Origin: Octopus sinensis
Taxonomy: Eukaryota
DNA length: 64,000 nt
NCBI RefSeq assembly: GCF_006345805.1
Contig: NC_043018.1
Span: 28,396,001-28,460,000, forward strand
Direction of reading: 5' to 3'
The notes beneath the pieces were generated by a model. That model saw only the letters and a program-made list of their open reading frames with translations, had not been told where the DNA came from and did no database searches. Made by a program: the position numbers and the translations under genes. The first letter of the stretch is position 1. Each line of letters opens with the position of its first letter. Below, one piece after another: positions 773 through 57,818 of this stretch.

Positions 773-2880
773 CTATCCGTTTTCTTTAGGGGACCAAAAA
801 CGTAACAGAAATTTAGTCACATGTGGGCATGATCCGAAAATCTCTGTCCTTGTATTTAGACATGTGGTAGGGTCTAAGCTGCTTTTCCAGATAAGCCATC
901 TCTCCATGTCGCATAAACCGCACCTTCCGCTGCCGTTAGTATAGGGCTTACATCTGGCCAAAATCTTCCATTGTATGTTATAATCGACACCTTTATCTCT
1001 TAAAGACCAAATATGATCGGATAATTGTGTCGCTTTTCTTTTGTTCCAGTGCCTAAAGCTCAAAGTGTGGTTATTGAACCTGGCCTTGAAATTACCCTCT
1101 GTAAGGCCCACGTATTTCTTCGTCGAAACGGTGTCTTTAGTTGTTATAGAGTTTACGGTAGCTTCATATATGATGGTCTTGACATGCAAGCTCCATTTAG
1201 CGGGCACATTCTTTATTCCTGCATGAACAGCTGTTTTCTTCTTGTGTTTTTTGTATGTTATGATTGATTATGTTTTTAAAATTGGTAGTTGAACTAAAAC
1301 TAATTTTTAAATTGTGTCTATTGAAGAGTTTCCTATAAGCATGGTTAACTGGAAAATGTCTATCTATCAGTGCTAGGAAATATTTACCTATATTGAAGGC
1401 CACCTCGGGTAAACCAGATGACCTTCCTATTTCTATTATTCCTTTTTCTTACTGTTGGGCTAGTGATAGGTGTATATTTTATTTTTTCGCTAAAACCACT
1501 ATCTTTTAAAGCTTTATTATAAACTGGGGCAACGCTATTGAAGATGTCCTCATTAGATGAGAGGCTAGAAATCGTCTTACTAATATTTTTATCTAAATTT
1601 TTGAATACTATAGGGGGATGGCATGAACCTACATTAATATAACTTAGTCTATCATTGGGCTTCCTATAAGGCTTATAAATATTTTTATTAAGATCTAAGG
1701 AAACGCCTAAGAAATTGAGAACCGTCAGGTTAGTGTCTATAGTTATACTAAGTCCGAAGTGTTTCATTAACTGGATAATATCCTTCCTAAAACGATCTTG
1801 TGCTGGTCCATTTGTATTAGCTGTTAAGGCGAGGGCATCATCTTTGTAGATGGCGAAATGTACGTTAGGGAATGTCTTACCGAAGGTATCTAGGAGAAAG
1901 AGTCCAATTAGATCACAGATGCCTGCCCCATCATATGAACCCATGCTCACATCGAAAGCGCCCTCCGTGTCGGTGTTTTTTACCCACTTTGCATTCTCAC
2001 TGAAAAGTAATGTCTTTCTAGCATGGAAGATTATATCCTTATCATTGGTACTAATTTCTATGAAGTCACTAGCGAAGGTTAGGGCTTTATCTAGCAGTTC
2101 TTTAGAGATAGAGGCATAAAAATCAACAATATCGAATTGTGTAAACCTCGCTTTTTCTTATTCTTAATAGCTTTAAACCAGTCTACGACTTCTATACTAT
2201 TGGACCATTGCACTAGCCTAGTATCGGTCTTAATTTTCGTATTTATTTTATCTAAAATTTCTTTGCTAATAATCCCTAGTTCTGACTGGCTCGGTTGATA
2301 AGCTACATTTAGGGTTGGAAAGGAAGTTTTCTTTGTGATCTTTAATAGTAATAAAGGCCTCTTTTTGGGGGAGGGCTTCTATTTTTTTATCTAATTTAAG
2401 TTTAGCGGCGATGACGCTAGCTTCTTTATTAATTTCGTTATATGTCTGTGCCCTAGCCTTAGTATAATTATTAATGATGCTGTTGTGTAAGAGTTGTGTG
2501 TATTTGCTGTTATCTACCAGGTATAAGTTCTTGGTTTTATCCGAAAAAAGTGCTTTTTTCTTGGAGCTTTTTATATGATTAATATCTTTTTTCAATTCAT
2601 GTTGGAAATCGTTAAAAGACTTACGAAATTTTATTTTGCTCATGATTTTCAGCAGGTCCGCTTCGAAATCTTCCAAGCCTTTAATCCTGGGAGGGAATTT
2701 TTTGGATTTTATTCGATAGAAAATGTTTTCCTTGGTGTTCGCTTCTGTATCAAAAAAGAAAGCCTTCCATCTCATACGCTTAATTACATCAGTAATTTTC
2801 TGCAGAAGTTTCTTAGAGTAAAAATCCTTTGATGGGATCGGTATATTTTTCATAGAATAATCTATGTGATATGCGTCCAT
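773..2880 (-). pseudogene. PLE polyprotein (RT + C-terminal GIY-YIG endonuclease), frameshifted
   Basis: ORFs 2266-2880, 1384-1950, 1197-1403 and 773-1207 join up. Motifs: YSMKNIPIPS, MGSYDGAGICDLIG, YKDD, CSCRNKE.CPLNG.C, IIYEA..KKYVGLTE..FKARFNNH, CGLCDMER, LNTRTE..CPH. Confidence 0.9.
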
Positions 2881-3336
2881 TTTAGATTCTTTTGTTTGTG
2901 AGAGTCCTCAACCGATGTTAGGCGATAATCCCAAAAAGGTCGTATTAGCTCTTAGTTGAGAATAACGTCGTCTGGGAGGTGATTTATTGATAAAACGGTA
3001 AGATAACAAAAGAAAGAAAGAGACCTCAATATTATGTAAATAGAGGAAATTTATCTATACAATATGTTACATTACTCGGTAGTCAAGATAAAACTCTGAG
3101 TTTCAGATGCCGAAGTGGAAATCCACAACACCTCTCTTCGGTTATCTGGCTATTTGAAAACGTTATGAAAAAATACCGTAAAAATGAAGGGAAATTACTC
3201 TGTTATAACTCTGCTTTGCCTGCGTACTTATACATCGCTCGCATTTTTCGTCATAAAAATATATAAAAATACATAAAAATATAAAAAATATATAAAAATA
3301 TATAAATTCTTCTTGGGACATAAACAGAAATATGTT

Positions 3337-3969
3337 CTATCCGTTTTCTTTAGGGGACCAAAAAAGTAACAGAAATTTAGTCACATGTGGGCATGATCCG
3401 AAAATCTCTGTCCTTGTATTTAGACATGTGGTAGGGTCTAAGCTGCTTTTCCAGATAAGCCATCTCTCCATGTCGCATAAACCGCACCTTCCGCTGCCGT
3501 TAGTATAGGGCTTACATCTGGCCAAAATCTTCCATTGTATGTTATAATCGACACCTTTATCTCTTAAAGACCAAATATGATCGGATAATTGTGTCGCTTT
3601 TCTTTTGTTCCAGTGCCTAAAGCTCAAAGTGTGGTTATTGAACCTGGCCTTGAAATTACCCTCTGTAAGGCCCACGTATTTCTTCGTCGAAACGGTGTCT
3701 TTAGTTGTTATAGAGTTTACGGTAGCTTCATATATGATGGTCTTGGACATGCAAGTTCCATTTAGCGGGCACAATTCTTTATTCCTGCATGAACAGCTGT
3801 TTTCTTCTTGTGTTTTTTGTATGTTATGATTGATTATGTTTTTAAAATTGGTAGTTGAACTAAAACTAATTTTTAAATTGTGTCTATTGAAGAGTTTCCT
3901 ATAAGCATGGTTAACTGGAAAATGTCTATCTATAAGTGCTAGGAAATATTTACCTATATTGAAGGCCAC
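3337..3969 (-). CDS. PLE GIY-YIG endonuclease domain (3' part of the upstream tandem copy)
   Basis: Uninterrupted 210-aa frame with the Cys-rich linker and GIY-YIG motifs. It duplicates 773-1403. Confidence 0.85.
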   Translation of the reverse strand: MAFNIGKYFLALIDRHFPVNHAYRKLFNRHNLKISFSSTTNFKNIINHNIQKTQEENSCSCRNKELCPLNGTCMSKTIIYEATVNSITTKDTVSTKKYVGLTEGNFKARFNNHTLSFRHWNKRKATQLSDHIWSLRDKGVDYNIQWKILARCKPYTNGSGRCGLCDMERWLIWKSSLDPTTCLNTRTEIFGSCPHVTKFLLLFWSPKENG

Positions 3970-14007: not shown

Positions 14008-14145
14008 GGAGATTTTGCGAAAAAAACGAACACATGTGGTGTACAAAACAAACAGATGTATTAGTATAACGACCAGAAATAGAAAAAGTGTTTTACGTTT
14101 CGAGCCTACTCTCTTCTACAGAAGGGACACAGAAAACAAGGAGAT
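14008..14145 (-). repeat. Short non-coding repeat with an HHR-like motif (family C)
   Basis: ctgtagaagagagtaggctcgaaacgtaaaa on the minus strand. Homologues at 27.1, 41.9 and 54.6 kb. Confidence 0.65.
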
Positions 14146-15188: not shown

Positions 15189-15305
15189 ATCACCGTGACC
15201 GACCAGGCTATCAGATGTAGCTACACATCGGTGGTCACAATGCATTTCGCATTGTTTTAGCCTTCAAATGACGCCACCCTCACTGGCTAAGCCGACAGAA
15301 AAAGA
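15189..15305 (-). mobile_element. 3' fragment of SINE family 3
   Basis: Matches 4200-4320. Confidence 0.75.
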
Positions 15306-15308
15306 GAA

Positions 15309-15676
15309 TGAAACAGTAATCGCTCGATAATGTAAAGTTGACAACAATCCCGAAACTAGTTCGAGCGTATCACTCAGACTTGAGAGGAAGGGATGGCCTC
15401 CCTTTGCAAATACTCCAAGGACACAGATATTGTGTCTAAAGCCAGCTAGAGACGAAGATCTCTTGGGGCTATAAAGCTACAGTAACACCCCCTCCCCAAT
15501 GTGGTTAGCCATGATAAGATGGCTTCTATACTTTACATTATCGAGCGATTACTGTTTCAATCTCATTCTGAGATTTAATTATGCTTACTGTTCGTTTTTC
15601 GACACCAGTGGCAGACGCCATTAGAAAAACTTATATCTATTTGCAAAGGAGCCTTCTCTTTCATCGCTACCTGGTG
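15309..15676 (+). mobile_element. Left part of a ~357-nt-period HHR-containing repeat (retrozyme/pLTR-like), split by the LINE insertions
   Basis: 15340-15540 is repeated at 26801-27000. 15309-15338 is a perfect 30-bp inversion of 15530-15559. Confidence 0.75.
15659..15676 (+). repeat. 18-bp target-site duplication tttcatcgctacctggtg (also 21226-21243 and 26763-26780)
   Basis: Three exact copies at the left, middle and right junctions of the LINE pair. Confidence 0.95.
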
Positions 15677-15930
15677 TTTTTTGAATTTTTCCTCGGCGTA
15701 TACCAATATTTTTCTGTTGCTGCAAATCGTTGTGTGAGTTCGTTTCCGTTTGTCTACTCTGTCGTGTTACAAGTAATATCATTGTTGAACTGTTTTTGAC
15801 CCAGTAATTTTCGCCCTTCGGGGTAGAAAATTTCTGTGTGCTGTTTTGTGTGAACTCTTAACCTGTATAGGTTATTTTTGGAAAAAAAAAAAATTCTCTT
15901 GTCATTTGTGACAAGTTTGTGTTGTCTAAT

Positions 15931-17439
15931 ATGGAATTAGACTTAAGTTCAAAAAAAGACTTTCCCGAGATGGGAGAAAGTATAACAACTGTTAAACAAA
16001 AGGAAACACAGACAAAACCCAGTTTTTCAGACGCCGTAGGTGGCGAAGTCGAAGAAATGGAGGTATCAATGGAAAGATTATTCAAGTTTAGATCGCTGGT
16101 GCAAAAAAGTGGTGAAGAAACACGATTGGTACCGCCCCCCGAAACTATACAAGCAATAAAGGAAAAAATGGTCACCTACAGGGTGTACAATATCAAGGAA
16201 AAACGAATGACCGACGTGAAAAACGAAATGGTCGAAAAGTGTATGGCTCCAATATGGAGTAAAGTTAGTCATGTCAACCGAGGTGCAAGAAGCGCTACAG
16301 TGGAGGCGCATTTTGAAACGGCGGAAGTAGCAAGGCAAATTTCGACACAAACGTTGAAAAACGAGAGTATAATACTGCTACCCTTATATTTAGGATGCAG
16401 AACCGCAAAAGTGACCCTAGAAGATATACCAACGGGCTACGACGTGATGTGGGCGGCAACAGCGGTCATTTTTGATGTTGAATCAAAATTGACAATTTTA
16501 AGTATGAAGAGAAAAATTGCAAAACACTGGAGAGGCCAGCAGCTGGAGATGATAATCCAGGCGGAAAATGCGACGTTGGAAAGCCTACCAGACAGAGTCT
16601 TCGTGGGGGAGGGGCACTCCATACGAGTTTCGGTGGAAGGACGCAGGCCCAGATGTTTTAAGTGCGGGCAAAAGGGCCACGTTCGCTCCGTTTGCACAAA
16701 AAAAAATAATGCGGGCAACGCCCCCCCACAAAACGCTGTGAAGAACGCAGAAAGCAGCAAAGTGGAGAAAAAAGTAACGGCTGGCGAAAACAAGGAGGAA
16801 AAAATAAACAGGTCGAACTCCAAAAAGGAGGAAGACAAGAACGAAATGCAAAATGAGAAAGGAAAGGATGAGGAAAATAATGCAACAAAAACAAATAAAC
16901 AAGAAGACATGGAATTTACGAACGTGTCCAACAAAAGGAAAAAATCCATCACCCCTGACTCCCCACCCGTATCAAAAAAAAAAAACAACGCAGACGAACA
17001 AATTAAAAATATTCTCCAATCCCACCCCGGCGGTACTACACTTATAGGCCAGCACTTTAACAAACCCCACCCCCCAACTGTAAAAGGGTTTAAACCCAAC
17101 GAAAAAATTATTGCATACACCACAAAGAACGTGAGAGTAGAAACATGGGTGAAAGCAAGTACGCTGATCAGGTGCTACAAAGCGACCGAGAAGGAAGCGG
17201 AGTGGCGATATGGAAGGGTCGGCGAAGAAGGATGGAAAGACAAAACCTTACAAAGCCACGTAAAAGCCGGCTTCATTAAGGATGTCACCCAGGAGGTGAC
17301 AACTGGGAAATTACCCGTTAGCCCGGCAGCCACACCAACCCAGAGCCCGGTGGCAACGCCGGTGAAACACCCAGCAGCAACGGCGAGTGGGGGGGAGACA
17401 GGCAGAAAGAATCTGTCAGGCTCCCTCTCGCAACCGTGA
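15931..17439 (+). CDS. LINE ORF1p, nucleic-acid-binding protein with a CCHC zinc knuckle
   Basis: Open ~502-aa frame from the first ATG. CFKCGQKGHVRSVC is followed by a Lys/Glu-rich region. Confidence 0.9.
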   Translation: MELDLSSKKDFPEMGESITTVKQKETQTKPSFSDAVGGEVEEMEVSMERLFKFRSLVQKSGEETRLVPPPETIQAIKEKMVTYRVYNIKEKRMTDVKNEMVEKCMAPIWSKVSHVNRGARSATVEAHFETAEVARQISTQTLKNESIILLPLYLGCRTAKVTLEDIPTGYDVMWAATAVIFDVESKLTILSMKRKIAKHWRGQQLEMIIQAENATLESLPDRVFVGEGHSIRVSVEGRRPRCFKCGQKGHVRSVCTKKNNAGNAPPQNAVKNAESSKVEKKVTAGENKEEKINRSNSKKEEDKNEMQNEKGKDEENNATKTNKQEDMEFTNVSNKRKKSITPDSPPVSKKKNNADEQIKNILQSHPGGTTLIGQHFNKPHPPTVKGFKPNEKIIAYTTKNVRVETWVKASTLIRCYKATEKEAEWRYGRVGEEGWKDKTLQSHVKAGFIKDVTQEVTTGKLPVSPAATPTQSPVATPVKHPAATASGGETGRKNLSGSLSQP

Positions 17440-17462
17440 GTAAATAATTTTCTTTTTTCTCG

Positions 17463-20400
17463 ATGATTAAGTTAGGTTGTATAAATGTGCGTGGAATGGG
17501 ATCGAAATGGAAACAGGCTTGTTTTCGTGACGACCTCATTTCACATAGAATCGAAGTAGCTATTGTTACCGAGTCCAAGATGAAGGACCCCAAGCGTTCT
17601 CACCACTTCTCAATGGTTACGAGAAATTTATTTCTCCTAGCCGAGGGGGAGGTGCAGGCGTGGCAGTTCTTTTCAGGAAGAACTTGGACTTACAGGTAAG
17701 TACTGTCTTTTTGGACCCAGAAGGTAGGCTGGTTGTCCTAGATGTGACGCACGTGAGTAAGCAGTCCTTCAGGTTGGTGGCTGTCTACGCTCCTAACGGA
17801 CGTGGGCAGACCGGTTTTTATCGGGAACTGGAGCACTTTCTAGTGACGTCCAAAACGGTAGTCTTGGTAGGGGATTTCAACACCATTCTCGATGCGCGGG
17901 TGGATGGTGTAGGCTCGAGCGATAGGAAGGGGAATCCTGGCCTCAAGGCTCTACTAGCGAGCTTTAATCTAGTAGACCGTTTTCGACTGGATGAGCCGAA
18001 CGTTCCACAGTGGACGTGGAGTAATAACGACGGCTCACTCAGATCGTACATAGATAGAGTATTTGTTAAGGAACGAGATAGGAATAGTGTTAGCTGTCCA
18101 CAATTCTCTGTTGTGCCTTACACGGATCACAAACTTGTAACGTGTGAGGTACATGTAGATAAATGCCATAGACAAGGTCCCGGGTACTGGAAGATGAACA
18201 AGTCTATTTTGACCTGTGAAGCTTTCCGTACCCGGATTAAGGAATTAGTACAGAGGGCATTATGTGGCACCATCATTAATAATAGATGGTGGCTCGCCCT
18301 CAAAAGAGCCATCCGTTTGGAGTCCATTAGATTTAGCAAGCAGCTAAGTTTAGATAGGACTAGAATAGAGGGCGAATTAGTTAAGAACTTAGACGAGGCT
18401 ATGGAATCTGGCTGTGCATCCGGAGTGTTGGCAGCGAGAGCGGTATTGTACCGTCACCTCAACGCCAAGCACGAGGGGTGTAGAGTCAGAGCTAAGTTAC
18501 GTGCAGGAAAACGAGAAGGTATTAACGTTGCCGGATGGGCCCGTCGTGAGGAGAGTCAGAAGGGCAAAAAGTCCTGTATTATGTCCTTAACTGACGAGCA
18601 GGACCGCAAGATCTATGGACAGGAGGAGATGCAGAAGGTCCTTCACCAGCATTTCGCACGGCTGTTGGGGGCGGTGGCCCGCTCGAGCGTGGGGAGACCT
18701 TAAAGGACTTCCTAGCTGGTGGGCCTCGGCTCTCGGCAGGTGAGGCGGAGTGCTGTGAAGGATCGATCTCTCCCGCAGAGGTAAGAGGGGTTATGGCCGA
18801 GTGCGCCGGGGAAAAGTCACCGGGATTGGATGGTCTACCCTATGAATTTTATTGTTGTATGCCGGACTTGTTCGGGGACATACTGGCAAGCGTCTATGCA
18901 AACTGGCAACAGAATGGGAGGATTCCCAGCTCTGTGAGTCGGGGAGTTGTGACGCTGGTCCAGAAAGACCCGAGCAAGGGGGACAGTATTAGTAATTACA
19001 GGCCCATAACTCTACTTAATGTAGAGTTTAAGATTTTGGCCAAGGTGTTAGCAAAAAGGTTGACGGCTGTCGTGAAGAAACTTGTCGGGAAGGCACAGAC
19101 ATGTGCAATCCCAGGCAGGTCGATCCAGGATAATCTTCACCTTCTCCGCTACACTATAGATAGGGTCGGGAAATTAGACGGCAAAGGAGGGGCATTGGTC
19201 CATTTAGACCAAAGTAAAGCGTTTGATAGGGTGGACCATCGGTACTTGGCGGCGGTTCTCGAAGCGGCTGGGCTGGGCCCTGGCTTCTGCGGGTGGATCT
19301 CAGCTATGTACAGCGGCATCAAGTCCACAGTCCAGATAAACGGTTACCTAACGGAGCCGTTTTCGATCAAGCGTTCAGTTCGACAAGGGTGCCCCTTGTC
19401 CCCGCTCCTGTATGTTTTGGCTCTTGAGCCATTGCTGCGGAAGCTGGAGAAGTGGGAGGCAACCCTAATGAAATCGGATGCGGTAAGTCTGTTTCTGCCT
19501 ATGCGGATGACGTCACCCTCATCGTGTCCAACGGAACACAGCTACCTCGGGTAGTAGGTGCTCTCCATAGATACGAAGCGGTGGCAGGGGCAAAAGTTAA
19601 CAGGGACAAGTCCATCGGTTTGCGCCTCGGCACCTGGAGGAACAAGCAGATACCGTCCAGTGTTGTTGGACACTGGACGGATGGTCCTGTTAAATTGCTC
19701 GGAGTATGGTTTGGTCCAGACTCCCAGACGGAGAAGAATTGGAGCGAGGTAACGAGCAAGGTGGATGCCATAGTACGGAAGTGGTCCGGAAGGCATCTTT
19801 CCTTGAAAGGGAGGGCGGAGGTGGCACAGATGTTTATAGCCTCTGTCGTCACCTACCGCCTGACCGTCGTGCCTTGCCCCGATTCGTGGTTAAACAAGTT
19901 GGAACGACTTCTTTTCCGCTTTTTGTGGAAAGGAGGAAAGCCACTTGTGAGACGCTCCGTGTGTTGCCAGGAACCGCTAAAGGGTGGACTGGGGATGCCT
20001 TGGCTAATGATGCGCAAGCATGCGTTGAGGCTGAGACACCTCTGGTGTTACCTGGAGGATGATAAGGTGTGGAGTTCGCTGGCAGAGGAATTCTTCCCGC
20101 GACCGGCCTCTATGGAGGGATTTACACCCGGTCTCATTAAAGGACGTAAACTGACTTCATGGCAGAAGGAGTGCCGACAGGCACTCTGGCTGATCCACAA
20201 GATGGGTAAGGCCGGCAGCGGGAATACCACCTCGGTGTTCTATAAAGGGCTGGTAGGAGGAAAAAATGACGACGTCCTAGGAAGGGCTCTGGGGTTCGAT
20301 GAGGATCAACTCTCCAACCTGTTTAAGAAGACTTTCAGGCCGGGGTATTTGGATAATTACCAAAAATCCCTGACCTGGCAGTGCTATAGGAATGCATTAC

Positions 20401-20849
20401 CTGTTCGCGAGAAGTTATCCAGGCACGGAATGTCAGTGCCACCGACGTGTCCAAGATGTGGGTTGGACGATGAAACCGTTCAACACGCTTTTGTACAATG
20501 TCGGGAGCTGTCAGGCTTGATAAGTTACGTGGAACACGTGTTGTCGCATCTGGGACGAGTACAGCTGTCGGCTGGATCTATGATTAAGATGATACCGCCA
20601 ACTGGACTCTCAAAGGAAGGTAAGGCTTGTTTTTACTGTACGGTGGCAGTATTGAAAGAGTGTGTATGGAGAACTAGAGTGGAAGGTCTAGTGAAAGGGT
20701 CCTTTATCTCTGGCCCCGGTTTGTTAAAATACTTCGGATATCATCTGAAGAGCAAGATGGGGTTGGAGAAGAGGAGCATGCCACAGAAAGAGTATATGGA
20801 ACGTTGGAAGGATGTGATGAGAAAGGTGGGTGAGAGTAACCCAGCTTAA
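17463..20849 (+). CDS. LINE ORF2p (APE endonuclease, RT, C-terminal CCHC) with three 1-nt frameshifts
   Basis: Motifs INVRG, VYAPN, VGDFN, IDRVF, TDH, KSPGLDG, YRPITLLN, DQSKAFDRV, RQGCPLSP, YADD and CPRC..ETVQHAFVQC. Restoring one base each at ~17586, ~18665 and ~19452 from copy 2 gives ~1129 aa. Confidence 0.92.
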
Positions 20850-21016
20850 TCATCGAGGAAAGGAAAATCAGCTGCTGGGATTTATAGGCTGCCGGGTTCA
20901 AAATTGAAACTGGTACCTCCCATTACCTTTCACTGTACATAACTGTTTAAAATAAAGAATTAATAATAAAAAAAAGAAATGAAAAGAAAACATACGCACT
21001 AAAAGTTCTCGTGATA

Positions 21017-21099
21017 AAGGCAAAAGTAAGCCAGGTTTCGTTTCAAGGCAAAGTAAGCCAAGGTTTCGTTTCAAGGCAAAGTAAGCCAAGTTTTCGTTC
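21017..21099 (+). repeat. ~28-bp tandem repeat in the LINE 3'UTR (3 units; 2 units in copy 2 at 26582-26636)
   Basis: Unit aaggcaaagtaagccaggtttcgtttc. Confidence 0.85.
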
Positions 21100-21497
21100 A
21101 AGTGACATAAAATTTTAATTTTGTAATTTTTTAAATTTCATTCGAACTCGCATAGCATTTTTGTAACTGTTTTGTCCTGTAATGTATCCATTCTATGTTA
21201 GATCTATTGATCATAATAAAGAAAATTTCATCGCTACCTGGTGTTTTTTGAATTTTTCCTCGGCGTATACCAATATTTTTCTGTTGCTGCAAATCGTTGT
21301 GTGAGTTCGTTTCCGTTTGTCTACTCTGTCGTGTTACAAGTAATATCATTGTTGAACTGTTTTTGACCCAGTAATTTTCGCCCTTCGGGGTAGAAAATTT
21401 CTGTGTGCTGTTTTGTGTGAACTCTTAACCTGTATAGGTTATTTTTGGAAAAAAAAAAAATTCTCTTGTCATTTGTGACAAGTTTGTGTTGTCTAAT

Positions 21498-23005
21498 ATG
21501 GAATTAGACTTAAGTTCAAAAAAAGACTTCCCGAGATGGGAGAAAGTATAACAACTGTTAAACAAAAGGAAACACAGACAAAACCCAGTTTTTCAGACGC
21601 CGTAGGTGGCGAAGTCGAAGAAATGGAGGTATCAATGGAAAGATTATTCAAGTTTAGATCGCTGGTGCAAAAAAGTGGTGAAGAAACACGATTGGTACCG
21701 CCCCCCGAAACTATACAAGCAATAAAGGAAAAAATGGTCACCTACAGGGTGTACAATATCAAGGAAAAACGAATGACCGACGTGAAAAACGAATGGTCGT
21801 CGAAAAGTGTATGGCTCCAATATGGAGTAAAGTTAGTCATGTCAACCGAGGTGCAAGAAGCGCTACAGTGGAGGCGCATTTTGAAACGGCGGAAGTAGCA
21901 AGGCAAATTTCGACACAAACGTTGAAAAACGAGAGTATAATACTGCTACCCTTATATTTAGGATGCAGAACCGCAAAAGTGACCCTAGAAGATATACCAA
22001 CGGGCTACGACGTGATGTGGGCGGCAACAGCGGTCATTTTTGATGTTGAATCAAAATTGACAATTTTAAGTATGAAGAGAAAAATTGCAAAACACTGGAG
22101 AGGCCAGCAGCTGGAGATGATAATCCAGGCGGAAAATGCGACGTTGGAAAGCCTACCAGACAGAGTCTTCGTGGGGGAGGGGCACTCCATACGAGTTTCG
22201 GTGGAAGGACGCAGGCCCAGATGTTTTAAGTGCGGGCAAAAGGGCCACGTTCGCTCCGTTTGCACAAAAAAAAATAATGCGGGCAACGCCCCCCCACAAA
22301 ACGCTGTGAAGAACGCAGAAAGCAGCAAAGTGGAGAAAAAAGTAACGGCTGGCGAAAACAAGGAGGAAAAAATAAACAGGTCGAACTCCAAAAAGGAGGA
22401 GACAAGAACGAAATGCAAAATGAGAAAGGAAAGGATGAGGAAAATAATGCAACAAAAACAAATAAACAAGAAGACATGGAATTTACGAACGTGTCCAACA
22501 AAAGGAAAAAATCCATCACCCCTGACTCCCCACCGTATCAAAAAAAAAAAACAACGCAGACGAACAAATTAAAAATATTCTCCAATCCCACCCCGGCGGT
22601 ACTACACTTATAGGCCAGCACTTTAACAAACCCCACCCCCCAACTGTAAAAGGGTTTAAACCCAACGAAAAAATTATTGCATACACCACAAAGAACGTGA
22701 GAGTAGAAACATGGGTGAAAGCAAGTACGCTGATCAGGTGCTACAAAGCGACCGAGAAGGAAGCGGAGTGGCGATATGGAAGGGTCGGCGAAGAAGGATG
22801 GAAAGACAAAACCTTACAAAGCCACGTAAAAGCCGGCTTCATTAAGGATGTCACCCAGGAGGTGACAACTGGGAAATTACCCGTTAGCCCGGCAGCCACA
22901 CCAACCCAGAGCCCGGTGGCAACGCCGGTGAAACACCCAGCAGCAACGGCGAGTGGGGGGGAGACAGGCAGAAAGAATCTGTCAGGCTCCCTCTCGCAAC
23001 CGTGA
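21498..23005 (+). pseudogene. ORF1 of copy 2, frameshifted as assembled
   Basis: Fragments 21536-21898, 21793-22572, 22413-22613 and 22697-23005 match copy 1 ORF1. Confidence 0.85.
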
Positions 23006-23027
23006 GTAAATATTTTCTTTTTTCTCG

Positions 23028-26000
23028 ATGATTAAGTTAGGTTGTATAAATGTGCGTGGAATGGGATCGAAATGGAAACAGGCTTGTTTTCGTGACGACC
23101 TCATTTCACATAGAATCGAAGTAGCTATTGTTACCGAGTCCAAGATGAAAGGACCCCAAGCGTTCTCACCACTTCTCAATGGTTACGAGAAATTTATTTC
23201 TCCTAGCCGAGGGGGAGGTGCAGGCGTGGCAGTTCTTTTCAGGAAGAACTTGGACTTACAGGTAAGTACTGTCTTTTTGGACCCAGAAGGTAGGCTGGTT
23301 GTCCTAGATGTGACGCACGTGAGTAAGCAGTCCTTCAGGTTGGTGGCTGTCTACGCTCCTAACGGACGTGGGCAGACCGGTTTTTATCGGGAACTGGAGC
23401 ACTTTCTAGTGACGTCCAAAACGGTAGTCTTGGTAGGGGATTTCAACACCATTCTCGATGCGCGGGTGGATGGTGTAGGCTCGAGCGATAGGAAGGGGAA
23501 TCCTGGCCTCAAGGCTCTACTAGCGAGCTTTAATCTAGTAGACCGTTTTCGACTGGATGAGCCGAACGTTCCACAGTGGACGTGGAGTAATAACGACGGC
23601 TCACTCAGATCGTACATAGATAGAGTATTTGTTAAGGAACGAGATAGGAATAGTGTTAGCTGTCCACAATTCTCTGTTGTGCCTTACACGGATCACAAAC
23701 TTGTAACGTGTGAGGTACATGTAGATAAATGCCATAGACAAGGTCCCGGGTACTGGAAGATGAACAAGTCTATTTTGACCTGTGAAGCTTTCCGTACCGG
23801 ATTAAGGAATTAGTACAGAGGGCATTATGTGGCACCATCATTAATAATAGATGGTGGCTCGCCCTCAAAAGAGCCATCCGTTTGGAGTCCATTAGATTTA
23901 GCAAGCAGCTAAGTTTAGATAGGACTAGAATAGAGGGCGAATTAGTTAAGAACTTAGACGAGGCTATGGAATCTGGCTGTGCATCCGGAGTGTTGGCAGC
24001 GAGAGCGGTATTGTACCGTCACCTCAACGCCAAGCACGAGGGGTGTAGAGTCAGAGCTAAGTTACGTGCAGGAAAACGAGAAGGTATTAACGTTGCCGGA
24101 TGGGCCCGTCGTGAGGAGAGTCAGAAGGGCAAAAAGTCCTGTATTATGTCCTTAACTGACGAGCAGGACCGCAAGATCTATGGACAGGAGGAGATGCAGA
24201 AGGTCCTTCACCAGCATTTCGCACGGCTGTTTGGGGGCGGTGGCCCGCTCGAGCGTGGGGAGACCTTAAAGGACTTCCTAGCTGGTGGGCCTCGGCTCTC
24301 GGCAGGTGAGGCGGAGTGCTGTGAAGGATCGATCTCTCCCGCAGAGGTAAGAGGGGTTATGGCCGAGTGCGCCGGGGAAAAGTCACCGGGATTGGATGGT
24401 CTACCCTATGAATTTTATTGTTGTATGCCGGACTTGTTCGGGGACATACTGGCAAGCGTCTATGCAAACTGGCAACAGAATGGGAGGATTCCCAGCTCTG
24501 TGAGTCGGGGAGTTGTGACGCTGGTCCAGAAAGACCCGAGCAAGGGGGACAGTATTAGTAATTACAGGCCCATAACTCTACTTAATGTAGATTAAGATTT
24601 TGGCCAAGGTGTTAGCAAAAAGGTTGACGGCTGTCGTGAAGAAACTTGTCGGGAAGGCACAGACATGTGCAATCCCAGGCAGGTCGATCCAGGATAATCT
24701 TCACCTTCTCCGCTACACTATAGATAGGGTCGGGAAATTAGACGGCAAAGGAGGGGCATTGGTCCATTTAGACCAAAGTAAAGCGTTTGATAGGGTGGAC
24801 CATCGGTACTTGGCGGCGGTTCTCGAAGCGGCTGGGCTGGGCCCTGGCTTCTGCGGGTGGATCTCAGCTATGTACAGCGGCATCAAGTCCACAGTCCAGA
24901 TAAACGGTTACCTAACGGAGCCGTTTTCGATCAAGCGTTCAGTTCGACAAGGGTGCCCCTTGTCCCCGCTCCTGTATGTTTTGGCTCTTGAGCCATTGCT
25001 GCGGAAGCTGGAGAAGTTGGGAGGCAACCCTAATGAAATCGGATGCGGTAAGTCTGTTTCTGCCTATGCGGATGACGTCACCCTCATCGTGTCCAACGGA
25101 ACACAGCTACCTCGGGTAGTAGGTGCTCTCCATAGATACGAAGCGGTGGCAGGGGCAAAAGTTAACAGGGACAAGTCCATCGGTTTGCGCCTCGGCACCT
25201 GGAGGAACAAGCAGATACCGTCCAGTGTTGTTGGACACTGGACGGATGGTCCTGTTAAATTGCTCGGAGTATGGTTTGGTCCAGACTCCCAGACGGAGAA
25301 GAATTGGAGCGAGGTAACGAGCAAGGTGGATGCCATAGTACGGAAGTGGTCCGGAAGGCATCTTTCCTTGAAAGGGAGGGCGGAGGTGGCACAGATGTTT
25401 ATAGCCTCTGTCGTCACCTACCGCCTGACCGTCGTGCCTTGCCCCGATTCGTGGTTAAACAAGTTGGAACGACTTCTTTTCCGCTTTTTGTGGAAAGGAG
25501 GAAAGCCACTTGTGAGACGCTCCGTGTGTTGCCAGGAACCGCTAAAGGGTGGACTGGGGATGCCTTGGCTAATGATGCGCAAGCATGCGTTGAGGCTGTG
25601 AGACTGAGACACCTTTACCTGGAGGATGATAAGGTGTGGAGTTCGCTGGCAGAGGAATTCTTCCCGCGACCGGCCTCTATGGAGGGATTACACCCGGTCT
25701 CATTAAAGGACGTAAACTGACTTCATGGCAGAAGGAGTGCCGACAGGCACTCTGGCTGATCCACAAGATGGGTAAGGCCGGCAGCGGGAATACCACCTCG
25801 GTGTTCTATAAAGGGCTGGTAGGAGGAAAAAATGACGACGTCCTAGGAAGGGCTCTGGGGTTCGATGAGGATCAACTCTCCAACCTGTTTAAGAAGACTT
25901 TCAGGCCGGGGTATTTGGATAATTACCAAAAATCCCTGACCTGGCAGTGCTATAGGAATGCATTACCTGTTCGCGAGAAGTTATCCAGGCACGGAATGTC

Positions 26001-26413
26001 AGTGCCACCGACGTGTCCAAGATGTGGGTTGGACGATGAAACCGTTCAACACGCTTTTGTACAATGTCGGGAGCTGTCAGGCTTGATAAGTTACGTGGAA
26101 CACGTTGTCGCATCTGGGACGAGTACAGCTGTCGGCTGGATCTATGATTAAGATGATACCGCCAACTGGACTCTCAAAGGAAGGTAAGGCTTGTTTTTAC
26201 TGTACGGTGGCAGTATTGAAAGAGTGTGTATGGAGAACTAGAGTGGAAGGTCTAGTGAAAGGGTCCTTTATCTCTGGCCCCGGTTTGTTAAAATACTTCG
26301 GATATCATCTGAAGAGCAAGATGGGGTTGGAGAAGAGGAGCCTGCCACAGAAAGAGTATATGGAACGTTGGAAGGATGTGATGAGAAAGGTGGGTGAGAG
26401 TAGCCCAGCTTAA
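23028..26413 (+). pseudogene. ORF2 of copy 2, frameshifted as assembled
   Basis: Fragments 23028-23813, 23882-24595, 24600-25601, 25636-26151 and 26105-26413. The breaks differ from those in copy 1. Confidence 0.88.
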
Positions 26414-26780
26414 TCATCGAGGAAAGGAGGGATCGGCTGCTGGGATTTATAGGCTGCCGGGTTCAAAATTGAAACTGGTACCTCCCATTACCTTCACTGT
26501 ACATAACTGTTTAAAATAAAGAATTAATAATAAAAAAACAGAAATGAAAAGAAAACATACGCACTAAAAGTTCTCGTGATAAAGGCAAAAGTAAGCCAGG
26601 TTTCGTTTCAAGGCAAAGTAAGCCAAGTTTTCGTTCAAGTGACATAAAATTTTAATTTTGTAATTTTTTAAATTTCATTCGAACTCGCATAGCATTTTTG
26701 TAACTGTTTTGTCCTGTAATGTATCCATTCTATGTTAGATCTATTGATCATAATAAAGAAAATTTCATCGCTACCTGGTG

Positions 26781-27000
26781 ATTATCGCCCGTTGACGAGG
26801 GACAACAATCCGGAAATTAGTTCGAGCGTATCACTCAGGCTTGCGAGGAAGGGATGGCCTCCCTTTGCAAATACTCCAAGGACAGAGATCTTGTGTCTAA
26901 AGCCAGCTAGAGACGAAGATCTCTCGGGGCTATAAAGCACAGTAACACCCCCTCCCCAATGTGGTTAGCCATGATAAGATGGCTTCTATACTTTATATTA
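26781..27000 (+). mobile_element. Right part of the HHR-containing target repeat
   Basis: Continues directly from 15676 once the LINEs are removed. Ends in (TA)n. Confidence 0.75.
26786..26828 (+). ncRNA. Type I hammerhead ribozyme variant (U3 core)
   Basis: cgcccg-TTGACGA-ggga-caacaa-tccg-GAAA-t-ta-GTT-cgagcg. The partial copy at 15340-15367 supplies tccc-GAAAC-TA-GTT, giving a perfect stem II and a palindromic stem III. Confidence 0.72.
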
Positions 27001-27029
27001 TATATTCTATATATATATATATATATATA

Positions 27030-27231
27030 TCGCCTGTTGATTCGTTAGTTACTGCCGCATTTTTTTTCTCTCCTTATTTCTGTGTTTTTTCTCTCTGGTA
27101 TCTTTCTGTTGAAGAGCGTAGGCTCGAAACGTTAAAGACTTGTTTTATTATATTTCCTGAGCGCCATACTAATACAATTGTTTGTTTGTTCCCACCTGCC
27201 TTCATATTGGTCTATTTTCATAAGCTTCCCG

Positions 27232-41789: not shown

Positions 41790-41979
41790 CCATGATAGAT
41801 CGCTACCCAATACGCATTCTTTATTTTCTCACCTTTTTTCTTTCTGTGTTCCTTTCTGTGGAAGAGCGTAAGCTCGAAACGTTAATGAAATTTTTACTTC
41901 TCGAGCGTCATACTAACATATCTGTTTGTTGTCTACACCACCTGTCTCCGTCTGTTGTTTTTTATTGTGAATTCTCTCC

Positions 41980-45415: not shown

Positions 45416-47620
45416 ATAATCAATCTTTCAACCAAACCTCTTTCTAACATAAAAATTGACATCCTCTTAAAAGGGCTCAAGTTTACACCAACTCCACGCA
45501 GAGCCAACCTAAATGAAATCAAGGATAATATAACAGAATTTTGCAGAAAATTAAGACTAGCAGAAGCATCAACCAGTTTCAATACTGAAGATGAATCACT
45601 AGTCAAGAACAAAAGTGAACACATCCCACACAGAAGAAGAAATAAAGATCTTGACGAATTCTGTAACCACATTGAGAACTTCCCCTACCATACTATACAT
45701 AAACAGAAAGCTAACTCAAATTTTAACACTACACAATGGAAAGAACTGATAGAACTTCAAAATGATGAAGATATAACCATTAAGGAAGCAGACAAGGGAA
45801 ATGCAGTTGTAATAATGGATACATCATACTACAGAAATCTTGTAATTTCCTTGCTTGATGACGACCTACATTATGAAAAGATTACCAACTACACCCCACA
45901 AAAAATAATGAAAACTCTATCTTCACTAATTAAAACCCATGAAAAGGAACTAACAACCAAAGGGATTGACTTCCTAACAAACTTTAAATGCAAACCTAGC
46001 CTTTTCTATGGTCTGCCAAAAATTCATAAAATTCAAATTATAAATGAAACCATTAAAAAATCACCAAAGACATACATACACACACCTAACCCGGGGGACC
46101 TAAAACTGCGACCCATTGTAGCTGGCTCAACCTGTGAAACACAGAGACTAAGTCTACTTATGGACATCCTCCTGAAACATATCGATAGCCATATCAGAGA
46201 TGACTTAGATATGTTAAACCACCTTCCCAAAAAAGCCAAGGAAGAAACAATCCTGGTTTCATTTGATGTAGTCATCTTGTATACCAGTATACCTCATAAT
46301 TATGGACTAGAGGCAATACAGTTCTGGCTGGACCAATTTCCGGAAGAAATACCAAAAAGCATCAGTAAAGAACTCATTACTAAATCAATTGAATTCATCC
46401 TACACAATAACCACTTCATGTTTGACAATACATTGCGAACTTAACAATGGGATACATAGAAATAATCATTTACCAGGAATCTTTATCAATCTTTGGAAAT
46501 CCCCTCTCTCAATACATAAAAGAGAACTGGAAACGATTCTTAGACGATTGTTTTATTCTCTGGAATGAAAACACAGATACACTCCTAAAATTTAAAAACC
46601 AATTGAACAGCATAAACCCAAATATACAGTTCACAATGGAATACAACCAAAAGGAGCTCCCGTTCTTGGATAGACTAATTAAAAAAATTAACCTTAAAAT
46701 AGAAACAGACATTTTCTACAAAGCCACAGACGCCAAACAATACCTTCTCTTTAATCCATGCCACCCAAGACACACTAAAACAAACATCCCCTTCAACCTT
46801 GCAAGAAGGATATGCACAATAGTGTCAGAACAAAATACCAGGAACTTTAGACTGCAAGAACTCAAAAACACCCTAATTGACAGACATTACCCAGCTCAAC
46901 TCATAGAGGTTGGGATCAGACGTGCAACAGAAATCAACATAGAAACTTTAAGAAAAGTTCAACAAACAACACACCTTCCCCGAAAATACTACCTTACATA
47001 TCTACATACAACCCCAGAAACAAAGAAGCCTTCACCATCATCACCCAGAATTTACCAATACTTCATAAAAAACCCAAATTAAAGGAAATTCTAAACATAC
47101 ACCAAATCATTAAAAGCTACAAACAGCCTAAATCACTAAAAAGATTCTCACAAAGGCAAAATTGTCTTCTGAAATTACGGATGCAAAAGTAAAATAATGT
47201 GGTAGATCGAACTGTGCAACATGTCCTAACCTGCTAGAAGGATCAGAATTCTTCTTTAAAGAGGGACAGAAATTCAAGATCAAATCTAACTTTACTTGTG
47301 CCTCTGAAAACATAATTTATGCCATAAAATGCTCGGGCTGCCACCAAGACTACGTCGTTTCCACGGAACTATCACTCAGACGTAGATGCACACTGCATCG
47401 ACAACAGATTGCATTCCCAGAATATAGAATGAAACCTTTTAGTGAGCACATTGAGAAATGCGCAAAGCAACTACTACCACAATTTTTAATCTTTCCATTT
47501 TACCAATGTGCTTTCGGATCATCAACACAAATTAGACTAAACAAGGAAACATTCTTCATTGAAAAGTACAAGCCCAGACTCAACCATCCGAACATACCGA
47601 TACAGAGAAATTCACATTAA
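45416..47620 (+). pseudogene. PLE RT + GIY-YIG, decayed (deletion of the GIAMGT motif at ~46430, stops and frameshifts)
   Basis: Motifs IINLS..LLKGLKFTPTP, KEADKGNAVVIMD, FYGLPKIHK, LRPIV, SFDVVILYTSIP, RFLDDCF and LPFLD. Confidence 0.9.
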
Positions 47621-53695: not shown

Positions 53696-55530
53696 TTACG
53701 CTTGACTTTTGCTTTGTATTTGTACAATTTGTCTGCAAGTCTCACCCAGGGACCTCAAAAGACAAAAAGTTAGAAGTCCAAGTTGGTGTTATGCCTAAAG
53801 TGTCATATATTTGGTTTGGCACAAAGTATTGTTCTAGAGAATGTTTAAGAAAACCTAAGAAAATAATAAGTTTGTTTTAAAATGTGAAATTACATAGACA
53901 GTATTTTACGTAGGATATAGGCAGTTCCCATGAGCTAGGTAGGACTCAGCCCCTTTTGCTAACATTCCTAGGGCACCTATGACAACATTTATTGTTTTAT
54001 AATCTTGAGGTTCCACATTTTGCCAATTTCTATTTTAAGATCTTTATACTTGCTCAGTTTCGGTAGATCTTGACAGAGACATTTATGTCGATTGGGATAG
54101 TCATATCAATGAGGAGGCATGATTTTTGTTTAAAGTCCTTCAGTATAATGTATGGCCTATTTGCATCTATCTTTCTGTCAGTTTGAATGGTGAAGTTCCA
54201 GAGGAGTGAGATGTGATCATTTTCAAGCACTGGAGGTGTTTTGTGTTCCCACCAGTTTTTCTCATGGGGCAAGTCCAGGTTTTTGCAAATTACTCAGTGA
54301 ATATACTGTGCTGCTCTAGCATGCCTGTTGAGATACTCTGTGGGCTCAAGAAGACAGCATAATCAATGATTTAATTTTGTTGTTTACATACACAACATGT
54401 TGAGCTACTGTCACTCCTTAATATGTTGACCTTGTAGCTCCTTGTAGGTTAGCATTGATATTAAAGAGAAAGTTTACGAAAATATACAAAATACGAAGGC
54501 AGGTGGAGTACAAACAAACAAATGTATAGCGCTCAGGAATAGAAAAGTATTTTATGTTTCGAGCCTACGCTCTTCGACAGAAAGATACACAGAAAAAAAT
54601 CAAGGAGAGAAACAAGGAGAGTAAAAAAATGCGTGTAGGAGCTAACGATCTATCATGGCGTCCTGACTTCGGACTGGTCAGATATTAGGCTGCTATGATA
54701 CACCCAACTGTTTCCGATTTTAAACCAGAAGACACTAACCATTGATGGCTAAGGGCTTTGTCAACATCAGCATTATTAGCTATCTTTGTGTATTTGCCAT
54801 TGAGAGGTTTTTCTTGACATTTATCAGTAGGAATATCTAAGTCAGCAGTTTTAGCATAGGTTTTCATACGCTTAGGTTTTTCTGTTCTTGTTTCCATTAC
54901 GTCTAATTCTGGTATTCGTTGTATTTGGAATTCACTTAGATATTCTTTTACCTGTTTTGTTACTGAGTATGATGCTCTCTTGCTTTCGTGCGTTAAGATA
55001 AGTTATAACATTCAGCCATCAGAGTTTTTCAGGTAGGGGTTCAGGCCTATTGTAGCAATCGTCATTGTTAATTCCAGCCACCATCTTGTTCTGGCGGGTA
55101 AAGTCGTTCTATATCTGCCTTAGGTTGGTGCATTCTATGTATTGTCAGCAATTTTCATATTTTACTGTCAAGATTAAATATTTCAGTAATTGACCACTTA
55201 ATGGAATTGAAGCTGTAAGTCACGACCGGTATGGCTAAAGTATTGATCGCTTCGATCCTGCTTCTTGCATTCAGCTATCTTGAGTATTGCACTTACTCTG
55301 GGATAACATTCTCTTCTGATCCTTTCCCACATCACTGAATGTTTGATTCCATCAACTTCAAATACCCATAGATATTTGTAGTTCTCCGCTGGTTCTAACT
55401 CCTTTATGACATTCGGCTAGTCAAAATTAACGCTGAATGTTTCTGTCATTTTCCCTTTGACAAAGGTAGCTTTTGCACAGTTACCGAGGCCAAATTGCAT
55501 CCTGATGTCATCAATGAATTGTTTAATAAC
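53696..55530 (-). mobile_element. 5'-truncated R4/Dong-like LINE (RT 3' half + restriction-like endonuclease), decayed
   Basis: Peptides YKYLW, WLVSSGLKSETVGCIIAA, WWEHKTPPVLEND, LWNFTIQTDRKIDANRPYII and LIDMTIP. The 3' end abuts (TAA)n, the known Dong target. Confidence 0.8.
54464..54680 (-). repeat. Family C repeat nested in the Dong LINE with a 7-bp duplication gatatta
   Basis: gatatta at 54457-54463 and 54681-54687. HHR-like motif at 54548-54585. Confidence 0.7.
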
Positions 55531-56528: not shown

Positions 56529-57818
56529 CGAGGGGCGTTCAGTAAGTAATGCCCCTGATCCATTTGTAGTTGTTTGATCTTGCTGAAATTTTGCATGTGC
56601 AATTATGTCTATCTCTATAGAGTAAGTGGCAAATTACAGCTCTGTATTAATCGTGGTTTCTGATTTACAGGTGTTTGAACTGAGTCAAGTGTGAAATGGA
56701 GCCTGTTGAGTGTCGAGCAGTGATTCGGGTTTTGTATTTGAAAGGACGCACACCACTGGAGACTTTTGATGAAATGAAAGTAACTTATGGTAATGATGCC
56801 CCATCATATGACCTTGTAAAATGCTGGCATCGTGAATTCAAACATGGTCGGAGCTCTGTGGAAACAGCCCCCAGATCTGGTCACCCTCCTTCTGCCATTG
56901 ATGAGGCATCTGTCCGTCAAGTTGAGGCTGCCATTTTGGAAGATCGACGCATAACTATTCGCCAAATAGCCTATGAGGTCAAGATTAGTACCGGGTCTGT
57001 GGAAACTATCGTTCATGACCATTTGCATATGCAAAAGGTGTCTGCCAGATGGATTCCCATGTTGCTCACACCTTTCCAGAAGCAAGAACGCGTCGAGTGC
57101 TCGAGGATGAATTTGGAGATGTGCCATGAAGATGAGTCAAAATTTTTCAAAAGACTGATTACACAGGATGAAACCTGGGTCCATCACCATGATCCAGCGA
57201 CCAAAGCCCAGTCAATGCAGTGGAAACACCGTGACTCACCTCCTCCAAAGAAGGCAAGGGTACAGCCCTCCGCTGGCAAGGTCATGCTCACAGTCTTCTG
57301 GGACCAGGACGGAGTAGTGATGACAGATTTCCTGGCAAAGGGTACCACATTTAAAGGAGCCTATTATGCTTCACTTTTGAGGAAATTAAGAGAAGCTATC
57401 AAAATCAATAGGCGGGGCAAGATCAGCAAAGGCATCCTCCTCCTGCAGGACAACGCTCCGGTCCACAACATGCGTGTCGCCAGATCAAAAGCACAGGCGT
57501 GCGGCTATGAACTCCTCCCCCAACCCCTTCTCTCCTGACCTTGCACCCTCTGATTTTCACCTCTTCCCACCCATGAAGTTGTTTTTCAAAGGAAAGCGTT
57601 TCCCAGATGATGCAGCCTTGATTTCTGAAGTCAGGTCGTGGTTGGAGGACCAAGCTGGGGTCTTCTACAAAACGGTCTCTAGAGCTGCATCAAACGATGG
57701 GAGAAATGCGTAACTCTGGGTGGTTCCTATGTAAAAGAAGACTAATAACTGTGCCACGTGTTGTTGCTCTACTGCTATGGGAAGTGGGTCAGAGGCATTA
57801 CTTATTGAATGCCCCTCG
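56529..57818 (+). mobile_element. Full-length mariner DNA transposon (1290 bp) with TA TSD, inserted in (GATA)n
   Basis: TIRs cgaggggcgttcagtaagtaatgcccctga and tcagaggcattacttattgaatgcccctcg, with TA on both sides. Confidence 0.95.
56696..57745 (+). pseudogene. Mariner DD34D transposase with frameshifts near 57520 and 57670
   Basis: Motifs WIPMLLT, ITQDETWV, LQDNAPVH and SPDLAPSDFHLF. Confidence 0.92.

Follow-up and report, generated by a model that had tools for sequence, protein, structure and literature searches.

Two long interspersed nuclear elements (LINEs) lie in tandem in a 64,000-nt stretch of the genome of Octopus sinensis (contig NC_043018.1, positions 28,396,001–28,460,000; hereafter the window), where they interrupt a retrozyme, a repeat of 357 nt that carries a hammerhead ribozyme. 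It is rather likely that this young, site-specific, Tx1-like LINE inserts at the start sites of small nuclear RNA (snRNA)-type promoters, those of retrozymes and U2 genes and, in the case of its relatives, U1 genes, and takes the promoter over. The use of both the retrozyme site and the first bases of U2 and U1 is likely explained by a common property, namely that transcription from an snRNA-type promoter starts at each of them. The initial annotation of the window had proposed a hammerhead-bearing repeat as the target and the stem of the ribozyme as the targeted feature. The repeat stands as a target; the stem probably does not, because U1 and U2 starts are also used, an upstream box is shared with them, and filled sites retain a long stretch of upstream repeat. 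The thing targeted is probably the promoter start site.

Insertion specificity of the LINE

The 3′ ends of the LINE of the window (family A) were collected with a 28-nt LINE-internal pattern, which has 30 exact matches in the genome, and all 30 were read. Twenty-three of the ends continue into the target and a retrozyme, six into the target and another LINE, and one, at locus L061, into a U2 gene (Rfam U2, 183.6 bits). In a set selected without regard to the flanks, the 40 best matches to the end of open reading frame 2 (ORF2), 38 copies run into the target (one of them for 9 nt only), one is the U2 copy, and one lacks a 3′ end; further, more diverged copies exist outside this set. None of the copies read has a poly(A) tail. 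A retrotransposon without long terminal repeats (non-LTR) is considered target-specific if more than 20% of its copies lie in one target (PMC4494074). The corresponding fractions for the LINE are 29/30 and 38/40. The initial annotation of the LINE as specific for a site in a multicopy hammerhead repeat is strongly supported by 29 of the 30 exactly matching 3′ ends, whereas the unrelated flanks envisaged as a sign against it were found in a single copy, that in U2. A loose pattern consisting of the LINE 3′ end followed by ATCG gave no signal, with 401 matches versus 626 for its control.

The 357-nt retrozyme monomers are spaced by 357, 356, and 357 nt in a LINE-free array of four copies; another array contains two. 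A pattern for the retrozyme site has 239 matches in the genome, about 22 of which are filled 3′ junctions, versus none for the control. The LINE occupies the same site in retrozyme families that are 72–82% alike, and the copies at L062 and L063, which are 98% identical to those of the window, have host retrozymes of 73–78% identity. Even a 5′-truncated LINE, at L068, is bounded by an identical duplication.

The target is re-used. Stacks of the same family occur on contigs C6 (three copies), C9 (two), and C2 (two), and stacks of mixed families at several loci. Positions in the target are numbered from its ATCG. In both informative stacks in which family B stands before family A, the last junction retains bases −3 to −1 of the retrozyme, and therefore the later element entered the site on the promoter side; the junction of a third mixed tandem lies outside the stretch read. 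The re-use of a regenerated site, which had been proposed for the window, is thus confirmed by tandems of different LINE families.

The left and right 18-mers that bound the LINE are discordant at a single dimorphic base at 5 of 25 loci, and a sixth locus differs at two other bases. In empty sites, the dimorphic base is linked to position 123 (28/29 for G and 19/21 for T). The right 18-mer agrees with the position-123 marker at four of the five discordant loci, and with the upstream markers at the remaining one. Since the right copy fits the local haplotype, the left copy can originate from the donor site. The concern that the 18-mer might be part of the LINE terminus itself applies to the 5′ copy, which can travel with the LINE. 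Donor bases at the 5′ end of the LINE match a model of R2 that attributes uniform 5′ joins to upstream target bases carried by the RNA (PMC3774820). The 5′ junction of the U2 copy at L061 can be read in two ways: the U2 duplication is either 17 nt long, with one mismatch, and precedes the retrozyme 14-mer, or it is 14 nt long and precedes 17 nt of retrozyme. In a U2 gene on C7 (L337:102–200), a relative of the LINE starts with three U2-like 14-mers 41 nt apart, as if leaders had been captured repeatedly.

Promoter-like features upstream of the insertion site

The ATCG of the insertion register corresponds to the first base of U2, and the duplication spans positions −3 to +14. Thirty of 47 U2 matches and 30 of 42 U1 matches in the genome were read. 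An exact ATCAGT starts at −62 to −54 at 25/30 U1 and 23/30 U2 loci, the promoters of which are otherwise dissimilar, and the background frequency is 0.15%. In retrozymes A and B, this box is located 57–60 nt 5′ of ATCG; the distance is about 55 nt in a third family. A proximal element at a fixed distance, about −57 to −61, is common to the retrozyme, U1, and U2.

The filled sites are also distinguished by the length of retrozyme upstream of them. The monomer extends 167 nt or more upstream in 26/26 filled sites of family A, whereas only 10/47 empty sites reach 160 nt (p 6e-12). For a threshold of at least 65 nt, the fractions are 26/26 and 36/47 (p 0.006). In the diverged families, 12/13 filled and 10/27 empty sites have at least 160 nt upstream. 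The 5′ ends of family B were reached in 10 of 19 stretches; the box is present in all ten of these sites, and 160 nt of upstream sequence in eight. This sharp 160-nt rule would locate a required cis element purely from the genome sequence. The limit lies at 160–170 nt in filled sites, but no matching motif of a distal element was identified in the DNA upstream of U1 and U2. A CTCCCTT box was noticed by eye about 250–265 nt upstream in both the retrozyme and U1.

From the predicted start on, positions 15663–15674 of the window agree with the U1 genes at L276–L303 in 9 of 12 nt. This likeness suggests that the promoter and 5′ end of U1 may have been captured by the retrozyme.

Related families and other targets

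Family B is about 82% identical to the LINE in ORF2. Among 30 copies fetched of 40, 23 lie before retrozyme A or B, three before another LINE, two before an unrelated hammerhead repeat, and two before neither. Family C is a 1.6-kb element with ORF1 only and the 3′ end motif of the LINE; 25 of 30 copies fetched (of 41) precede hammerhead repeats, as judged by eye. Copies of family C (L167, L169, L170, and L216–L245) occupy an identical register in one U2 gene and in hammerhead repeats of four families. Several copies of the older family D (L251–L253, L257, L258, L261, L262, L271, and L275) precede other hammerhead-like repeats, which begin with TTTYATCT. Relatives of the LINE end exactly before U2 (L170 and L337) and U1 (L336). 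In a dispersed U1 copy on C3 (L338:6766–6790), 13 nt of the 5′ end are duplicated in tandem, and the promoter box is absent.

Promoter recognition and sequence recognition

Several observations weigh against targeting of promoter start sites. The ATCAGT box is only a hexamer, albeit at a fixed distance. One filled site, L074, lacks the upstream box, another, L078, lacks an upstream retrozyme, and 2/10 family-B sites have less than 160 nt upstream. Insertions at snRNA starts number just three, from the 60 snRNA loci read and one neighbor, and that in U1 has no target duplication. Family D lies mostly elsewhere, with 7/30 copies near a hammerhead, which indicates weak specificity. T haplotypes are enriched at filled sites (21/25 versus 23/50 at empty sites, p 0.002). 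Across 20 loci, including three older copies, distances between LINEs correlate weakly with those between their flanks (Mantel r 0.41, p 0.016). The targets share the sequence ATCG...CYGG, and U1 and retrozyme A have the above-mentioned identity at 9 of their first 12 nt; therefore, a recognition site longer than the guessed motif may suffice.

It is unlikely, although it accounts for a part of these observations, that the site is recognized purely by its sequence, with the endonuclease and RNA–DNA pairing reading a long site that retrozymes and the 5′ ends of U1 and U2 have in common through chance or descent, and the promoter mattering only for the expression of source copies. The ATCG and CYGG positions common to the targets, the T-haplotype bias, and the filled site at L074 favor it, and target choice by Tx1 and Dada elements has been ascribed to sequence (PMC4494074; PMC8869645). 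However, a degenerate target motif has 3704 matches in the genome, the first 30 of which comprise 10 retrozymes, one site inside a LINE, and 19 in other DNA; about two-thirds of the matches are thus not retrozymes, and 0/30 LINE copies lie in such a match. Identical 17-mers with less than 160 nt of upstream sequence are not used by family A (0/26 filled sites versus 37/47 empty ones), and the targets of the sister families, U1 included, cannot be aligned.

Organization of the window locus

Three identical 18-mers at positions 15659, 21226, and 26763 bound the two LINEs, as initially annotated; 0.04 such occurrences are expected by chance, and the window contains no additional match, even with up to three mismatches. 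All features of the locus are on the plus strand unless stated otherwise. The locus begins with an inverted retrozyme arm (15301–15338, minus strand), a copy of 15530–15567 over 38 bp with 94.7% identity, which resembles the 5′ inversions of many loci. The upstream partial monomer (15340–15662) corresponds to monomer positions 38–360 and starts with a hammerhead remnant, GAAAC-UA-GUU (15352–15361), from which the CUGANGA box is missing. A box similar to the proximal sequence element, ACCAGT (ATCAGT in most copies), is located at 15604–15609, 59 nt 5′ of ATCG, and both box and distance are as at U1 and U2 genes. The first target copy occupies 15659–15676, and transcription is predicted from the geometry of U1 and U2 to start at A15663. 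Judged from the junctions at L063 and L061, the target duplication is probably 17 nt long (15660–15676, positions −3 to +14), and the first T is the end of the LINE. The 18-bp site of the initial annotation is correct as to its place but probably not as to the length of the duplication.

The first LINE (15677–21225) contains a 5′ untranslated region (UTR), ORF1 (15931–17439), which encodes 502 residues with one putative CCHC zinc knuckle at residues 241–257, a frameshifted ORF2 (17463 to 20849) with an apurinic/apyrimidinic endonuclease (APE), a reverse transcriptase (RT), and a zinc finger, and a 3′ UTR that terminates in AATAAAGAAAA without poly(A). The second target copy (21226–21243) is the regenerated site that separates the LINEs. 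In the second LINE (21244–26762), both ORFs are frameshifted, and the 3′ UTR has one repeat unit less than that of the first. The LINE is 5.5 kb long; ORF2 is frameshifted in both window copies, and ORF1 is open solely in the first. The third target copy (26763–26780) provides the 5′ strand of an extended stem I of the type I hammerhead at 26786–26828. The core of the hammerhead, UUGACGA (26792–26798, with a U3.G8 combination), begins 11 nt 3′ of the 18-mer, and is followed by stem II (26799–26812), GAAA (26813–26816), and a predicted cut site after GUU (26820–26822). The downstream partial monomer (26781–27001) runs to position 239 of the monomer, where one of the two preferred ends lies, and is succeeded by (TA)n. 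Joining 15676 to 26781 in silico restores the long hairpin described in the initial annotation (−55.8 kcal/mol), with the hammerhead as its cap.

Over 5565 positions, copies 1 and 2 of the LINE are separated by five substitutions and 62 indel columns. The window pair could be an assembly duplication or the product of unequal crossover rather than of two insertions, even though the targeting itself is real. The low number of substitutions, three of which are clustered and absent in four other runs, and the predominance of indels of the long-read type speak for this explanation, which we nevertheless regard as rather unlikely, because stacks of the same family occur at three other loci and no assembly error yields stacks of different families at one site. 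Contigs of the four runs, which carry four organism labels, span the LINE end and retrozyme, but the junction is not visible in the pieces listed.

An uninterrupted ORF2 of 1129 residues from copy L088 has the Pfam domains Exo_endo_phos, RVT_1, and zf-RVT. Its RT is nearer to that of L1 (L1 ORF2p, E 3e-61) than to that of R2 (E 2e-25). The zf-CCHC match of ORF1 is marginal (E 7e-4, 20.0 bits versus a cut-off of 20.8), and the look-alikes in Atlas are CCHC proteins. A CCHC zinc knuckle in ORF1 is a feature of the Tx1 clade. Among named sequences, that closest to the LINE protein comes from Argonauta hians (65% over 39% of the query). The 120 homologs listed, the 10 clusters, and the rows of Atlas include no named Tx1 member, and "Tx1-like" is therefore a label derived from structure. 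The LINE copies at L042, L063, L018, and L020 are mosaics, in which the 5′ and 3′ parts come from younger and older subfamily variants.

One hundred nucleotides past the retrozyme, at 27108–27135 (plus strand), a second minimal hammerhead-like motif, UUGAAGA...GAAAC-GUU, belongs to a very abundant repeat, with relatives in the window at 14046–14123, 41834–41947, and 54470–54648. Elsewhere in the window, broken ORFs at 1384–3750 (minus strand), 45815–47082, and 62258–63511 (both plus strand) presumably encode Penelope RT with GIY-YIG, by their appearance, and we take a 280-residue ORF at 56696–57538 (plus strand) to be mariner transposase-like.

The retrozyme and its hammerhead

In an alignment of 20 copies from several families, the stems of the type I hammerhead covary: 88% of the cells are paired, and eight pairs have changed on both sides, values which are inflated by relatedness. 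Fold z-scores range from −0.04 to −2.7. The core of the family A retrozyme combines U3.G8 with a GUU cut site, and related families have canonical CUGAUGA/GUC cores or U3-A8, which is a known active variant (PMC3088659). Rfam reported no hammerhead in either junction stretch of the window and, among the 150 of 206 matches listed for the whole window, microsatellite noise alone. The family HH9 matched two of the four monomers of the empty array below threshold (31.2 bits, cut-off 52, E 3.7e-4).

It had been suggested that flanking hammerheads release the LINE RNA from a longer transcript. In the window, the upstream hammerhead has lost its CUGANGA half, and its remainder is joined to the inverted arm; the downstream one has two damaging changes not found in other copies, namely loss of the G10.1-C11.1 pair (G26812) and of C15.2 (T26817). 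At filled family-A loci, the upstream hammerhead is complete in 6/25 cases only, whereas the downstream one is intact in most. With the upstream hammerhead absent or incomplete at the majority of filled loci, and damage to both hammerheads in the window, excision by two ribozymes is not the general fate of the LINE RNA, and this suggestion is rejected.

It is also very unlikely that the hammerhead itself, as an RNA structure, a DNA hairpin, or a means of 3′ processing, is the feature selected by the LINE. Its covarying stems are in favor of such a role, and so is the downstream ribozyme being left whole by the duplication. A core is present 15–50 nt from the 3′ junction in 24/30 copies of family A, 16/30 of B, 19/30 of C, and 7/30 of D, compared with 12/1797 background tiles (relaxed descriptor, since the strict one overlooked bulged stems). 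However, insertions in the same register also occur at U1 and U2, neither of which has a hammerhead. The distance to the core varies among repeat families (25–35 nt), whereas that to the box is constant; broken cores are common in filled copies, the window included; and empty sites with an intact hammerhead and short upstream DNA are unfilled.

The ends of 79 retrozyme arms are concentrated at monomer positions 230–241 (39 arms) and 276–287 (26 arms), and 5′ inversions are frequent among retrozyme loci. A pair of start points separated by some tens of bases is the signature of a Penelope "tail" (PMC11167929), and to judge by its ends the retrozyme is probably spread by Penelope enzymes. The place of the 3′ retrozyme is taken by other sequence 9 nt into the target at L075:6315–7100, and at L085 such sequence replaces the 5′ third of the LINE. 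Presumably, the replacing sequences are Penelope-like.

The idea that the LINE spread by hitchhiking, with Penelope enzymes or recombination amplifying whole composites of LINE and retrozyme from a single original or a few, is already largely refuted as the main route and hardly credible: the 65/79 arms with Penelope-like ends, the weak overall Mantel correlation, and the LINE at L078 (C3:145.46–145.47 Mb), which is truncated at position 692, followed by a 3′ retrozyme, and without an upstream repeat within 11 kb, are the observations in its favor, but copies truncated in this way number 1/30, a single young LINE occurs in retrozyme families 72–82% alike and in U2, inverted arms at filled loci contain empty sites, and mixed-family tandems contradict the spread of composites. 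At 17 young single-LINE loci, the flanks have diverged ten times more than the LINEs (mean distances of 3.8% and 0.4%), and the two are not significantly correlated (Mantel r 0.15, p 0.22); five tandem or deleted loci were omitted from the Mantel set. The copy at L078 is either a deletion or a rare composite mobilized by Penelope.

Proposed insertion mechanism

Insertion at promoter start sites, the reading preferred here, suggests the following mechanism. The retrozyme would carry an snRNA-type promoter, from which transcription of the LINE would start at ATCG, so that the RNA opens with 14 target bases. This leader would let the complementary DNA anneal and give a precise 5′ join, and target bases read through at the RNA's 3′ end would prime reverse transcription without poly(A). 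Downstream target bases aid the priming of R1Bm read-through transcripts (as cited in PMC7265360). The site may be chosen by a short endonuclease preference combined with an active promoter complex. The LINE would thereby capture the promoter and leave the small RNA downstream promoterless, and stacks such as the window pair would form because the site on the promoter side is regenerated. The downstream hammerhead is a putative trimmer of the RNA's 3′ end.

A bolder form of this mechanism can be offered as a tentative proposal. The snRNA promoter complex, SNAPc, may guide a lineage of APE LINEs to position +14 of any active snRNA-type start, where the promoter is stolen, 14 bases serve the 5′ join, and the hammerhead of the target ends the RNA, in a chain from Penelope to retrozyme, LINE, and ORF1-only element. 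Guidance by SNAPc would enable the LINE to move between unrelated retrozymes and U1 or U2 without a change of endonuclease.

If start sites of promoters are indeed targeted, this provides a testable route for target switching by site-specific LINEs and a natural, precise, full-length integrator directed at dispensable repeats. It would also reveal how animal retrozymes are transcribed, a question open since newt satellite 2, a retrozyme for which an snRNA promoter has been reported (according to a citation in PMC2220036).

Comparison with known systems

A LINE targeted to retrozymes or snRNA start sites was not found in a literature search, the scope of which did not extend to Repbase, closed-access papers, or the supplementary target tables of PMC4494074. 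The host repeat resembles metazoan non-LTR retrozymes, which have monomers of 170–400 nt, a type I hammerhead, and Penelope-type ends (PMC7229834; bioRxiv 10.64898/2026.07.22.740005); it differs in being the landing site of a LINE and, in family A, in its U3.G8 core with GUU.

Tx1 families are known from DNA transposons, microsatellites, satellites, U2, U5, and 5S genes (PMC4494074). The closest parallels are Tx1L of Xenopus, in Tx1D, and the crocodilian Tx1-Mar, in Mariner-N4_AMi (PMC4494074), APE-RT LINEs at a fixed site in a mobile element, with tandem stacking and a non-autonomous partner at the same site. Unlike these, the octopus LINE has an RNA retrozyme as its host rather than a DNA transposon, and several unalignable hosts and U1 and U2 starts are used in one register, with box and upstream length predicting their use. 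Keno and Utopia also insert into U2 snRNA genes, and Keno has an APE; however, their 3′ flanks start at U2 nucleotide 39 (PMC4640811), whereas the flanks at L061, L170, and L337 begin at −3, which excludes membership in Keno. Here, a complete U2 coding sequence that lacks its promoter is re-established downstream of the insertion, and U2 is a minor target.

The RNA-borne target bases proposed for the LINE are similar to the upstream 28S leader of R2, which results in uniform 5′ joins and short duplications (PMC3774820). R2 uses its own hepatitis delta virus-like ribozyme and a restriction-like endonuclease; in the octopus LINE, the leader would be set by the start site of the target, and the ribozyme is that of the target. 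Self-excision of the R2 type involves a functional ribozyme on the 5′ side, which is the one truncated in the window and at most filled loci.

HAL1 is a half-L1. Family C is comparable to it, being an ORF1-only 1.6-kb element with the 3′ end motif of the LINE, and differs in its site specificity for retrozyme and U2 starts. The elements Ty3, Ty1, and TRE5 insert at a fixed position relative to the starts of small RNAs by means of host transcription factors; their targets are RNA polymerase III or tRNA genes, and the insertions are upstream. By contrast, the octopus LINE is inserted 14 nt inside the transcript of a predicted snRNA-type unit of RNA polymerase II.

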